Assembly (NCBI GenBank): GCA_944393125.1
Contig: CALXZB010000001.1
Span: forward strand, 64,315-128,314
DNA from: an uncultured Clostridia bacterium
GTDB taxonomy: Bacteria > Bacillota > Clostridia > TANB77 > CAG-508
Reading direction: 5' to 3'
DNA: 64,000 bases
Positions within the stretch are counted from its first letter, which is position 1. Each line of letters opens with the position of its first letter. Below are positions 9,720-11,866 of this stretch, one piece after another. The position numbers and the translations under genes were made by a program. The notes beneath the pieces are model-generated. The model was not told where the DNA came from, searched no databases, and saw only the letters and a program-made list of their open reading frames with translations.

Positions 9720-9748
9720 TGTAACGAATGTCGATTTTTTGAAGTCTA
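9720..9748 (+). promoter_or_regulatory. candidate ECF-type promoter (TGTAAC-N18-GTCTA)
   Basis: AAC-type -35 and GTC-type -10, 22 nt upstream of the sigma gene ATG. A similar motif precedes the second ECF sigma gene. Confidence 0.35.
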
Positions 9749-9769
9749 TATAAATAGAAAGGAGAAAAA

Positions 9770-10249
9770 ATGGAAGAAATATATAAAGAGTACTCTAAAT
9801 ATATATTTAATTATTTATCATCCTTTACTAATACAGAAATTGCCGAAGAATTAATGCAAGAGACTTTTTATAGTGCAATGAAGAATATACATAAATTTAA
9901 AAATAACTCATGTTTGAAAACATGGCTCTATAAAATTGCTAAAAATAAATTGATAGATTATTATAACAAAACAAATAAAATGCAAGAAATAGATTTTGAT
10001 AATATTAATGAAAATTTGTTGTTAAGTAATTCTTTTGAAGAAGATTGTATAGAAAGAGATGAATTAATAAATGTATATAAAAAAATACATAAATTAGATG
10101 ATAAATCAAAAGAAGTAGTCCTTTTAAGAATTAAATGTGAATTTAGTTTTAAAGAGATAGGAAATATTATGGGTAAAACAGAAGAATGGGCAAGAATTAC
10201 TTTTTATAGAGCAAAAGTAAAATTAAAGGAGGATTTTGAAAATGAATAA
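9770..10249 (+). CDS. ECF-type RNA polymerase sigma-70 factor
   Basis: 159 aa. Region 2 (ELMQETFYSAMKNIHKF...TWLYKIAKNKLIDYY) and a region 4 HTH (FSFKEIGNIMGKTEEWARITFYRAKVKLK). RBS AAAGGAG. Confidence 0.85.
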   Translation: MEEIYKEYSKYIFNYLSSFTNTEIAEELMQETFYSAMKNIHKFKNNSCLKTWLYKIAKNKLIDYYNKTNKMQEIDFDNINENLLLSNSFEEDCIERDELINVYKKIHKLDDKSKEVVLLRIKCEFSFKEIGNIMGKTEEWARITFYRAKVKLKEDFENE

Positions 10250-11192
10250 AAGTGATGAATGTGATATAGTTAAAGATTTAGCTGCACCATATGTAGAAAA
10301 TCTTATAAATAGTAAAAGTAAAAAATTTGTTGAAGAACATTTAAAAAATTGTGATAATTGTAAAAAATATTATAATGATATAAATTCGAATATTTTAAAT
10401 GAATCTCATAATGAAAAAATAAAAGAAAAACATGAATTAGACTTTTTGAAAAAGATTAGAAAAAATATGAGTATTTTAAAAATATTATTATTTGTTATTT
10501 TGACGATTATTGTTGTGGTAATATTAAGTATTTTTATAAAATGTCAAACTGTTACTAAAATTGTAAATGATGCATATGAACAAATAGAATATTTAAAAAC
10601 ATTAGATAATTATAAATTAGTTGAAAAAACTATAACTACAAATTATCCAGACAATGATACTTCTGAAATCATAGCAACTTATTATTATAAGGACGGAAAA
10701 TATAAAAATGAATATGGCAATACTACATGTTACTATGAAGATAATTCTTATAATAAAATTTATGTTTATCTTGATTTAAAGCAAATAGATTATCATACAC
10801 AAAATTTTATAGAGAATAACAAAGGTGAAACTTTTGAAACTTTTTATGAAATTATATCTTATAAACAATTATCAGGACTATTTAATCTATTATTATCAAT
10901 AAGAACAGATAAATTTAATGGTATAGATTGTTATGTTATTAGAAATGGAAATAATAATAGTTATAGAGAAATCTGGATTGATAAAGAGACAAATACTGTT
11001 TTGAGGAGAATTGAAGAAAATTATTCAAAATATTATAGAGAAACTATATATACTTTAGTTGAAAACCAAGTAACAGATGAAGATGTAAGCAGTTCTATAC
11101 TTGATACTGAACAATATAAAGATTATACTAGAAATAATACTACATATAATGCAACAAAAGAAATAAAAAATACTTATAATACAGAAAATTAG
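10242..11192 (+). CDS. zinc-finger (zf-HC2) anti-sigma factor with an extracytoplasmic LolA/RseB-like domain
   Basis: H-x3-C-x2-C motif (EEHLKNCDNCKKY) and TM helix ILKILLFVILTIIVVVILSIFI. The start is the ATG at 10242 behind AAGGAGGA, overlapping the sigma stop by 8 nt. Confidence 0.7.
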   Translation: MNKSDECDIVKDLAAPYVENLINSKSKKFVEEHLKNCDNCKKYYNDINSNILNESHNEKIKEKHELDFLKKIRKNMSILKILLFVILTIIVVVILSIFIKCQTVTKIVNDAYEQIEYLKTLDNYKLVEKTITTNYPDNDTSEIIATYYYKDGKYKNEYGNTTCYYEDNSYNKIYVYLDLKQIDYHTQNFIENNKGETFETFYEIISYKQLSGLFNLLLSIRTDKFNGIDCYVIRNGNNNSYREIWIDKETNTVLRRIEENYSKYYRETIYTLVENQVTDEDVSSSILDTEQYKDYTRNNTTYNATKEIKNTYNTEN

Positions 11193-11194
11193 AA

Positions 11195-11831
11195 ATGGTA
11201 AAAAAAGTAATTATTTTTGATAAAAACATTCAAAATATAAAAAAAATCTTAAATCTATTTTTTAATAAAATAGAAACTCAAAACGTAAAAACTTTTGTTG
11301 CAACTAATGAAAAAGAAATTCAAGAAATTGAACAATTAAATGATATAAATTTAATTTTAATAAATAAAAATTTGAATTATATATATATATATATATCAAA
11401 AAATAATACTTCAGTTTTTTATTATCGGAAACAATATTGAGATTGATACAATAAAAAATAACGTATCTTTAATACTTGATAAAGTAAGAACAAATAATAC
11501 CTCAAAAATAATTGAAATAATATCAAAAGAATTATTATTGTTAGGATATAATTTTAAATTGAAAGGAACACAATATTTATTAGAAGCAATTCTATATATC
11601 TATATTAGAAATAATATAGAATTACTTGAAAATTTAGAAAAAAATGTTTATAATCATATTGCGATAAAAAATAATAAAAACTTGTTAAATATAAAAACAA
11701 GTATTATAAAAGCAACAAACTATGTATATAATTATCAAGATGAAAATAAATTATACGAATATTTTTCAATAAAAATAAAGATAACTCCTAAATTAGTTAT
11801 ATCTACCATATTGAGCAAAATAAATATTTAA
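11195..11831 (+). pseudogene. Spo0A_C-type regulator with a pseudo-receiver domain, split into two frames at a (TA)9 tract (phase-OFF or pseudogene)
   Basis: ORF 11195..11440 is receiver-like but has LILINKN in place of the phospho-acceptor LxLLD. The frame open across 11376..11831 encodes LGYNFKLKGTQYLLEAILY...VYNHIAIKNN...IKATNY (Spo0A C-terminal DNA-binding domain type). The two frames are offset by +1 across the tract. Confidence 0.6.
11378..11396. repeat. (TA)9T dinucleotide tract inside a coding sequence
   Basis: Read directly: tatatatatatatatatat. Confidence 0.95.
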
Positions 11832-11840
11832 AGATAATAA

Positions 11841-11866
11841 ATATCCACCCGTAAAACGGGTGGTAT
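11841..11866. terminator. bidirectional hairpin ccacccg-taaaa-cgggtgg
   Basis: 7-bp GC-rich stem followed by tatttcttt on the plus strand, between the Spo0A_C-like gene and the IS remnant. Confidence 0.55.

Follow-up and report, generated by a model that had tools for sequence, protein, structure and literature searches.

The locus described here raises the question of how an extracytoplasmic function (ECF) sigma factor could act through a regulator whose gene is divided between two reading frames. It lies in a stretch of 64,000 nucleotides from an uncultured Clostridia bacterium (assembly GCA_944393125.1, contig CALXZB010000001.1, positions 64,315 to 128,314), which we call the window and to which all coordinates refer unless another locus is named. 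Three tightly packed open reading frames (ORFs) on the plus strand encode the ECF sigma factor, an anti-sigma factor and, at 11195-11831, a protein that joins a receiver-like part to a DNA-binding domain of the Spo0A_C type once a change of frame is allowed for; we refer to this last gene as gene 3. A fourth gene, transcribed divergently, encodes a secreted protein. Taken as a whole, the locus is probably best explained as a self-contained regulatory cassette of four genes found in gut Clostridia, in which gene 3 is recoded and its product serves as a relay. Positions of the individual features are collected in Table 1.

Gene 3 and its frame break

Read in the zero frame, gene 3 encodes a truncated receiver; without a shift, this ORF continues to a TGA at 11438-11440 and its product has 81 aa. 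The DNA-binding domain follows in the +1 frame, where the Pfam model Spo0A_C (PF08769) scores 35.9 bits against a cut-off of 25. Full-length relatives of the gene 3 product are 201-213 aa long and show 44-55% identity. In an alignment of homologues, the Asn of 'LILINKN' stands where distant true receivers have Asp ('LIFLDL', P0041), and two distant relatives, in loci L017 (4001-4666) and L022 (1388-2056), are complete response regulators with the acceptor Asp (LIFLDLNLPDENG, 'LIFLDL') and a Spo0A_C domain. The comparison suggests an evolutionary series leading from a true receiver to a truncated receiver without the Asp and on to the frame-broken gene. Lacking the canonical acceptor Asp, the gene 3 protein cannot be switched by phosphorylation there.

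An AlphaFold2 (AF2) model of the joined window product, made with the full-length and distant relatives as alignment, has a predicted local distance difference test score (pLDDT) of 84.2. Its receiver part comprises strand 1 (residues 3-8), helix 1, strand 2, helix 2 and strand 3 (53-57, 'LILIN'); a loop (residues 58-72) takes the place of helix 3 and is followed by strand 4 (73-77, 'VFYYG'), two linker helices and the helices of the Spo0A_C domain. Strand 5 and helix 5 of a receiver are probably missing as well. The best Foldseek matches to the joined model are the Spo0A C-domain structures 1fc3 (E = 6.7e-5) and 1lq1, with a probability of 1.00, target-normalised template modelling (TM) scores of 0.73-0.85 and 27-28% identity (for 1lq1, TM 0.82-0.85 at a root-mean-square deviation of 1.5-1.9 Å); the receiver domains of DivK, ArcA and Spo0F rank next. 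A profile search of the PDB also found Spo0A (E = 1.3e-6).

Gene 3 shares with Spo0A (1FC3, 1LQ1) the C-terminal fold and the order of receiver and Spo0A_C domain. It differs from Spo0A in having Asn for the acceptor Asp, in the absence of helix 3 from the model, in its recognition helix and in belonging to a patchily distributed cassette rather than to a spo0A locus. The recognition helix of Spo0A, SRVERAIRHAIEV, aligns to NIKTSIIKATNYV in the gene 3 product, and the residues differ at nearly every aligned position; the NCBIfam model spore_0_A (TIGR02875) scores 24.3 bits against a cut-off of 200. Given the missing acceptor Asp, the score far below cut-off and the different recognition helix, we reject gene 3 as a Spo0A orthologue.

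A preliminary description of this DNA had read gene 3 as a receiver without phospho-acceptor joined, after 'frame repair', to a Spo0A_C-type domain. The Asn at the aligned position bears out the first assignment, and the Pfam score above cut-off together with the predicted structure bears out the second. That the Spo0A_C domain lies in the other frame also stands; the defect that the word repair implies does not, as the break is shared by ten lineages under selection.

The frame changes at 11426, 31 nt downstream of a (TA)9 run. Ten lineages from independent assemblies (the window, L001, L007, L040, L043, L045, L048, L050, L051 and L052) were compared, and all of them switch frame at one block, TTT TAY TAY CGG N. 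Frame 0 reads (F/L)-Y-Y-R and meets a stop 0-4 codons past CGG (17 codons in L001). Frame +1 reads (I/T)-(I/T)-G-(D/N)-(N/T), which matches the 'PIFYIIGDN' or 'PIFYIIEDN' of intact relatives, indicating that the ancestral event was a 2-nt deletion (TAT ATT ATC to TAT TAT C). A second contig, L058, is 100% identical to the window over 5770-12031. Matches to the C-terminal part with at least 65% identity are without exception short ORFs (119-145 aa), all homologues of the N-terminal ORF in the databases have 67-98 aa, and no full-length member of the window's clade was found among 5.8 billion proteins. Related split ORFs occur on well over 100 contigs.

Among the ten lineages, the N-terminal ORF has a ratio of nonsynonymous to synonymous substitution rates (dN/dS) of 0.32 and the Spo0A_C domain one of 0.16, at pairwise dS values of about 0.8-1.0 and with no stops in either part. 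For the window's own pairs the ratio is 0.175 and not raised. It reaches 0.5-0.58 in the 13 codons right after the site and about 1.0, which looks neutral, in the linker that follows. Up to the site, codon position 2 of frame 0 varies least and position 3 most; past the site, the same holds for frame +1. These comparisons indicate that both halves are under purifying selection, and that the frame break dates far back, has become fixed throughout the clade and is subject to selection.

The (TA)9 run was considered as a cause of the frameshift and rejected. In the window it exceeds that of every other lineage by 6 nt, the length differences are multiples of 6 nt, and the DNA alignment shows a 6-nt in-frame difference only; the close relatives P0078 and P0079 are 2 aa shorter exactly at this run. 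Its length is polymorphic among strains of 95-99% identity (81 versus 79 aa), and two variants among P0080/P0081 (75 and 67 aa) diverge or end right after it, being perhaps out-of-frame alleles or contig ends. Runs of A6 or T6 are not conserved as slippage sites (L001, L007 and L048 have only T4), so that transcriptional slippage is unlikely. Gene 3 has also shifted frame independently in L009 (about 4150-4200) and L010 (about 4290-4310), members of a subfamily that is otherwise intact; GATAAAT has gained an A in one case, and in the other the shift lies in an A9 run. Both need a +1 correction.

Possible recoding at CGG or two polypeptides

For the expression of gene 3 we lean towards +1 ribosomal frameshifting at a hungry CGG codon. 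Ribosomes would read Tyr-Tyr, stall on CGG and resume one base downstream on GGA (Gly), yielding a product of 211 aa with the sequence ...SVFYY-GNNIEIDT... across the junction; unshifted ribosomes would terminate four codons after CGG and release the 81-aa fragment. The zero-frame product would end in ...NNTSVFYYRKQY, and the predicted trans-frame peptide is NNTSVFYYGNNIEIDTIK. In its fuller form, for which we see the chances as evenly balanced, the proposal is that of a conserved +1 frameshift in a chromosomal regulator at a hungry and possibly unassigned CGG (UAU UAU CGG A, resuming at GGA), which would compensate for the 2-nt deletion, would have been kept by selection in at least 10 lineages, and would leave the ratio of the 81-aa to the 211-aa product to be set by CGG decoding.

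The junction itself supplies most of the evidence. CGG occurs in none of the 509 Arg codons, and none of the 18,436 codons overall, in 53 long ORFs of the window, and is invariant at the junction in 10/10 lineages. In the +1 frame its C occupies the third position of a codon for Ile or Thr, and ATC makes up 2.9% of the Ile codons in the window. As a control, none of 66 columns with invariant residues keeps a G- or C-ending codon in all lineages; since the junction C is kept in all ten, it is evidently selected as a nucleotide. The Tyr codons vary between TAT and TAC, a change that is silent in frame 0 and exchanges Ile for Thr in frame +1, indicating that frame 0 is read up to CGG. In each of the eight lineages scanned, the +1 frame is free of stops from a point 5-15 codons ahead of the site, and it is kept as protein (G-D-N-x-E-N-x-I-I-x-E-K-I) before any candidate start. 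Of the features by which programmed +1 frameshifting is recognised, conservation of the same site with coding constraint in frames 0 and +1 is present, as is a slow zero-frame codon in the A site (CGG); P-site re-pairing or a known stimulator was not found.

Precedents exist for parts of this arrangement. In glass-sponge mitochondrial genes, +1 shifts take place at the very rare CGG_A or UGG_A next to GGA and are interpreted as Ty3-like; the CGG_A/GGA arrangement is identical to that of the gene 3 site (PMC5009743). In E. coli, CGG_C is the top-scoring sense codon in the A site for +1 shifting, and TAT ranks as weak in the E site (PMC2790909). The C. difficile group uses CGG less than once per 10,000 codons and has no tRNA that reads it, the codon is unassigned in Mycoplasma capricolum, and in very AT-rich Firmicutes its decoding is nearly or wholly lost (PMC8629427). 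The 2016 review by Atkins and colleagues states that no hungry-codon frameshifting giving a functional trans-frame protein was known (PMC5009743). With the sites of prfB (CUU UGA C), Ty3 (GCG AGU U) and glass sponges, the gene 3 site has in common an abundant +1 codon (GGA), a close zero-frame stop and its conservation. It differs from the known +1 shifts in that UAU or UAC in the P site cannot re-pair, in the lack of a Shine-Dalgarno-like stimulator and in being a site in a chromosomal bacterial regulator, not in a release factor, mobile element or organelle gene.

The window also holds an internal example of a real +1 recoding site. Its prfB gene (release factor 2; TIGR00020, 526 bits) on the minus strand at 21678-22785 has the canonical site CTT TGA C at 22713-22707, with AGGTGA ahead of it, and comes out of the ORF finder as a split ORF of 347 aa with a false GTG start.

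Several observations weigh against frameshifting at gene 3. CGG is not absent from relatives, where it makes up 7 of 482 Arg codons. A tRNA-Tyr on UAU or UAC cannot re-pair on AUC, so that the mechanism would have to be of the less common Ty3-like type without slippage. RNAalifold found no conserved RNA structure near the site, and a conserved upstream Shine-Dalgarno-like element is also lacking there. The case is a comparative one drawn from sequences, and within it the selection on the 13-codon bridge after the site is weak evidence that cannot decide the matter by itself. The frameshifts in L009 and L010 and the absence of gene 3 from L053/L054 imply that the N-terminal part, or the whole gene, can be lost. 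Finally, an in-frame ATG is present in six of the ten lineages (codon +15 to +17), and in L052 a fair Shine-Dalgarno sequence precedes the ATG at codon +16, making separate initiation or reinitiation possible.

These downstream starts lead to the main alternative, which we hold to be less probable but credible: a stable split, in which a pseudo-receiver fragment of 77-81 aa and a Spo0A_C domain are made as two functional polypeptides; the second would arise at an internal start or through reinitiation behind the zero-frame stop close by. Like truncated Spo0A in Bacillus subtilis, a Spo0A_C domain on its own would presumably be constitutively active. Purifying selection on both parts agrees with such a split, gene callers do use the ATG at +15 to +17 in the six lineages that have it, L052 offers its fair Shine-Dalgarno sequence, the break of L010 falls just before an ATG, and short Spo0A_C-matching ORFs stand beside the cassette in L001-L004 (117 aa), L021 and L031. 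The starts themselves, however, vary in position from codon -11 to +39 and lack Shine-Dalgarno pairing in nine of the ten lineages (-0.4 to -3.4 kcal/mol, against -12 to -14 kcal/mol for the sigma, anti-sigma and secreted-protein genes). In the window and in L001, the open +1 stretch ahead of the site contains no canonical start, and the window has no ATG, GTG or TTG in the +1 frame until a TTG at codon +39 (11538), inside the domain, yet selection on its domain is not relaxed. In the AF2 model, the position of the common Met, +15, lies mid-helix (residues 83-100). Nor would a split gene account for an unvarying CGG so close to where the first ORF ends, or for a +1 frame that from the site on is free of stops and kept as protein (GDN.EN.II.EKI) in all 10 lineages.

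The frame break is the more unusual part of the locus; the comparative signal points to a hungry-codon shift with a functional trans-frame protein. To our knowledge, few cellular bacterial genes use +1 frameshifting. If true, the shift would place the output of an ECF sigma factor under an additional control at translation and, if confirmed, it would show one consequence of the loss of CGG decoding in AT-rich Firmicutes. In annotation by gene callers, such a gene turns up as a pseudogene or as a pair of small, unrelated ORFs.

The four-gene cassette and its mobility

The three plus-strand genes form an operon. The sigma TAA (10247-10249) lies beyond the anti-sigma ATG at 10242, giving an overlap of 8 nt, and the anti-sigma TAG (11190-11192) is followed after 2 nt by the gene 3 ATG at 11195. 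Gene 3 has no Shine-Dalgarno sequence of its own and is thus translationally coupled. No terminator-like sites were found between the three genes. All coordinates and junctions given for these genes in the preliminary description hold, and so does the operon that it proposed; the unit conserved among relatives, though, comprises four genes, including the divergent one at 8991-9494.

Gene 1 is an ECF (group 4) sigma-70 factor, being short and having regions 2 and 4 only. The NCBIfam model sigma70-ECF (TIGR02937) scores 81.2 bits on it (cut-off 42.9); no equivalog model is reached, the best being the SigM subfamily with 109 bits against a cut-off of 148. In the anti-sigma factor zf-HC2 scores 22.8 bits against a cut-off of 22.2 and is detected in 14 of 14 homologues (best E = 4e-9), in which C7 and H33-x3-C37-x2-C40 are invariant; a hydrophobic span can be read from the sequence at about residues 78-100. 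By these marks gene 2 encodes a ZAS (class I, zf-HC2) anti-sigma factor. The Pfam searches thus confirm regions 2 and 4 in gene 1, and the invariance of the H-x3-C-x2-C motif with its zf-HC2 matches confirms the zinc finger in gene 2, as both had been read from the single sequence. The anti-sigma factor also matches the N-terminal domain of RsiW weakly (5wuq, E = 0.007) in a PDB profile search. Its extracytoplasmic domain has no PDB profile match and no family above threshold; for the LolA/RseB-like domain suggested in the preliminary description there is a single sub-threshold Pfam match, DUF2092, with 15.8 bits against 21.2 in 2 of 14 members.

Pairs of the B. subtilis type (sigmaW-RsiW, sigmaX-RsiX, sigmaM-YhdL) likewise consist of a sigma factor with regions 2 and 4 and an overlapping, co-transcribed anti-sigma factor with H-x3-C-x2-C and one membrane span, and are likewise preceded by an autoregulatory promoter with a TGTAAC-type -35 and a GTC-containing -10. 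The co-transcribed, presumably cognate anti-sigma factor and the predicted autoregulatory promoter are further marks of an ECF sigma factor. Compared with those pairs, the one described here has a DNA-binding protein as the third gene of its operon, no other such promoter in 64 kb, an anti-sigma ectodomain that matches no defined family, and no equivalog model that is reached.

Searches with the repaired gene 3 product followed by contig retrieval gave 58 loci; a single-protein scan of metagenomes contributed three of them only, and most lineages were obtained through look-ups of exact proteins. All 58 come from uncultured Clostridia, for the most part from gut metagenomes, and the relatives are metagenome-assembled genomes labelled Clostridia or Clostridium. 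About 30 uncultured Clostridia lineages have the four-gene cassette, in unrelated genomic contexts, and the system is restricted to uncultured Clostridia of the gut. By tblastn with the window proteins, 24 of 34 genome loci, and every metagenome locus of sufficient length, have the sigma, anti-sigma and Spo0A_C-type genes in one shared order. The divergent gene for a secreted protein of 160-175 aa lies upstream in about 17 of the 34 genome loci, and again in all metagenome loci of sufficient length. A literature search found no mention of Spo0A_C together with ECF, nor of this arrangement; with its conservation in relatives, this agrees with the earlier remark that the arrangement was not recognisable as a characterised one.

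The secreted protein is probably the output gene of the cassette. Its family comprises 29 protein clusters, has no name, and gave no match in Pfam, NCBIfam or PDB sequences. The AF2 model is a beta sandwich (pLDDT 72.9) with weak Foldseek matches only (E about 1e-3, TM below 0.5), which include resemblances to jelly-roll folds, C1q heads and carbohydrate-binding modules. The terminator-like hairpin that follows the gene falls within the block shared with L053.

Beside the cassette, additional short ORFs or segments matching Spo0A_C were noticed in L001-L004 (2066-2419), L021 (65-322) and L031 (4001-4258). They stand upstream of the secreted-protein gene; the one in L001-L004 is a called gene of 117 aa, and in L031 a second TGTAAC-N-GTCTA promoter (3501-3528) lies upstream of one such segment.

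The genes that flank the cassette are wholly different among loci and include those for EF-P, GGDEF proteins, DapB, Ldh, toxin-antitoxin systems, a resolvase and peptidase M23; the cassette is therefore a portable unit, and its differing genomic contexts fit mobility. Linkage within it is not absolute. L053 (2799-5004) and L054 have a cassette with 90% identity to window 8873-11194 and without gene 3; it sits between secY and adk in a ribosomal-protein gene cluster and is accompanied by an FtsX-type permease and an ABC ATPase. The preliminary description had called the sigma pair and gene 3 'hard-wired'; this does not hold absolutely, as L053 keeps the sigma pair and the secreted-protein gene without gene 3. 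A phage origin of the cassette was rejected, no relative of it having been found among 2.9 million viral contigs.

Two IS200 copies, oriented alike, bracket the cassette in the window. The block that cassette relatives share has its end at 8868-8873. Compared with 8218-8843, the 5' part of copy 2 is 95% identical to copy 1 and its 3' part 69%, and about 140 nt of tnpA are missing, which suggests that copy 2 arose by recombination between two different IS200-family elements. The sole credible Rfam matches in 7900-12600 are to the IS200 leader STnc490, in copy 1 (8699-8825, 52 bits) and copy 2 (12278-12402, 69.8 bits); other Rfam matches there are sub-threshold, mostly to microRNA models, and lie on the IS200 palindrome.

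That the two copies form a composite mobile unit which moves the cassette seems rather improbable to us. They do lie immediately outside the shared block, and L053 has a 90%-identical cassette at another genomic place; but copy 2 is a degraded chimera without an intact transposase, no called Y1_Tnp gene accompanies the cassette in L001-L005 and L043-L055, Y1_Tnp stands beside it only in L058, the contig identical to the window, gene 3 is missing from the L053 block, which makes that a different unit, and the segment 8101-12420 is absent from all other genomes. A composite transposon would have two functional copies whose outer ends move with the cargo, and this was not found. IS200/IS605 elements move as single strands with specific ends, and we know of none that mobilises intervening DNA or forms composite transposons. 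Of the earlier suggestion that the module is IS200-bracketed and horizontally carried, the bracket stands and the varied contexts fit mobility; the bracket is probably incidental, as relatives have the cassette without IS200.

Table 1. Positions of the cassette features and flanking IS200 copies in the window
Feature	Position	Strand	Description
IS200 copy 1	8101-8875	-	intact tnpA (8235-8711), 5' leader, end hairpin; Y1_Tnp E = 3.7e-36
Intrinsic-terminator-like hairpin	8909-8934	-	after secreted-protein gene; 11-bp stem, 6 G-C pairs, T-rich tail
Divergent secreted protein, 167 aa	8991-9494	-	signal peptide ending AFA, followed by AE; mature part all-beta
Conserved hairpin/inverted repeat AAAAAGAAAG-N6-CTTTCTTTTT	9546-9571	-	A/G-rich; 5' leader of secreted-protein gene
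Sigma-A-type promoter TTGTTA-18-TG-n-TAAAAT	9611-9640	-	for secreted-protein gene; extended -10
Four direct repeats AAAGATAACA / AAATATACTA / AAAGATACTC / AAAATAACCA	9630-9669		10-bp period; candidate operator for gene 3 product
ECF-type promoter TGTAAC-N18-GTCTA	9720-9748	+	putatively autoregulatory; about 50 nt upstream of sigma ATG
ECF sigma factor, 159 aa	9770-10249	+	Pfam Sigma70_r2 E = 7.8e-14, Sigma70_r4 E = 3.5e-6
Anti-sigma factor, 316 aa	10242-11192	+	ZAS zinc finger, one hydrophobic span, extracytoplasmic domain of about 215 aa
Gene 3, zero-frame part	11195-11425	+	77 codons to second Tyr; truncated Asp-less receiver
(TA)9 run in gene 3	11378-11395	+	in-frame length polymorphism
Frame-change site TAT TAT CGG A	11420-11429	+	zero frame Tyr-Tyr-Arg (CGG); +1 frame resumes at GGA (Gly), 11427
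Gene 3, +1-frame part	11427-11831	+	134 codons and stop; linker helix, Spo0A_C DNA-binding domain
Terminator-like hairpin CCACCCG-TAAAA-CGGGTGG	11845-11863	+	T-rich tail to 11870; closes three-gene operon
IS200 copy 2	11931-12420	-	degraded, chimeric; no intact transposase

Control region, proposed relay and neighbouring genes

The intergenic region between the divergent genes was aligned across 21 loci. The ECF promoter has the aligned form TTGTAAC-N18-aGTCTATA and a fixed position at -50 from the sigma ATG, and it is found at the matching position upstream of the sigma gene in 23 loci. In the 64-kb window, TGTAAC-N18-GTCTA has one match, against 0.08 expected. We take this promoter to resemble the sigmaX consensus. 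Closer to the secreted-protein gene, repeat units of the type AAAGATA(A/C)(C/T)A recur with a 10-nt period, 2-4 times in most loci; an array of at least three units occurs once in 64 kb and in none of 100 simulated windows. The -35-like TTGTTA of the secreted-protein promoter falls inside the first repeat unit, and the extended -10 (TGnTAtAAT, the reverse complement of atTATAaCAt) is conserved in the alignment. The overlap of repeats and -35 has the geometry of activator sites that replace a weak -35.

The leader of the secreted-protein gene contains a conserved hairpin. With 20 loci aligned, 91.8% of its cells are paired and 5 of 10 pairs have changed on both sides, a degree of pairing reached in 0 of 500 shuffles and not by slid controls (79.7% at most); RNAalifold itself predicts no structure there. 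The 3' arm CTTTCTT could instead pair with the AAGAAAG by the ribosome-binding site (9508-9520).

From these elements the following mechanism may be proposed. The membrane-spanning zinc-finger anti-sigma factor would hold the ECF sigma factor, which after release would transcribe its own operon from TGTAAC-N18-GTCTA. The gene 3 product, as the likely effector of the sigma factor, would bind the four 10-bp-phased repeats over the -35 of the divergent sigma-A promoter and thereby switch on the secreted beta-sandwich protein. Since no sigma target beyond its own operon is visible in 64 kb and no second repeat array is present, we infer a relay. That the gene 3 product binds the repeats, with the secreted protein as output, seems to us about as likely as not; the protein is tied to the repeats by co-occurrence and geometry only, which counts against the proposal. 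The activity of the gene 3 product would be set by the amount made.

Parts of this scheme resemble known systems. In carQRS of Myxococcus xanthus, the ECF sigma factor CarQ mainly drives its own operon, CarR is the anti-sigma factor, and the co-transcribed CarS relays the response to the structural genes. The logic of a self-driving ECF sigma factor with a co-transcribed relay protein is the same here, but CarS is an antirepressor without a DNA-binding domain, whereas gene 3 encodes a Spo0A_C-type DNA binder, and the proteins are unrelated. HP1043 and ChxR consist of a receiver without the Asp and a DNA-binding domain, and their activity is set by abundance. The gene 3 product similarly joins a receiver-like domain lacking the phospho-acceptor to a DNA-binding domain; it differs from them in its Spo0A_C effector in place of the OmpR type, in its truncated receiver and in expression that would be controlled by an ECF sigma factor. 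If true, the relay would represent a new type of ECF wiring, with the operon of the sigma factor as its only evident local target and a phosphorylation-independent regulator of the Spo0A_C type carrying the ECF output to a secreted protein.

The preliminary description had instead placed gene 3 near the Spo0A regulon, as a Spo0A_C paralogue that would bind 0A boxes and feed into, or compete with, the host's sporulation regulon. The spoIIIA operon (26456-31369) and gerA (23973-25652) in the window do mark the host as a spore former, as had been supposed; the fold is that of the Spo0A DNA-binding domain, and the spacer of the window's ECF promoter contains TGTCGAT, the only 0A-box-like sequence nearby. 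We nevertheless regard the link as quite improbable, because the recognition helix is different, spore_0_A reaches 24 of the 200 bits needed, the TGTCGAT is kept in no relative, the cassette has its own conserved repeat array of other sequence, which is a likelier operator, and its patchy distribution and variable contexts are unlike those of a core sporulation function. As TGTCGAT is absent from all other loci, it was also rejected as a feedback site. That gene 3 is simply broken, by a sequencing or assembly error, slippage at (TA)9 or decay into a pseudogene, with the sigma and anti-sigma factors as the sole functional unit, is barely credible: the (TA)n run is length-polymorphic among close relatives, L053/L054 lack the gene and L009 and L010 have other frameshifts, but the break lies outside the run, whose differences are multiples of 6 nt, one and the same break is found across 10 diverged lineages and in split ORFs on more than 100 contigs, an independent assembly is identical, and dN/dS values of 0.16 and 0.32 without stops at dS of about 0.8-1.0 rule out neutral decay.

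The window, with a G+C content of 27%, is chromosomal DNA from a spore former. Besides the genes already named it includes a fatty-acid synthesis cluster (716-7951), pfk and prfB; tRNA genes are absent from its 64 kb. Just past IS200 copy 2 lies an orphan ORF of 110 aa on the plus strand (12523-12855) without a Pfam or NCBIfam match. A second, unrelated ECF sigma gene (172 aa) is found on the minus strand within 13256-15084, overlapped by an anti-sigma gene of 437 aa that carries DUF4179, and two ABC exporter genes (15264-19323) come next after this pair.

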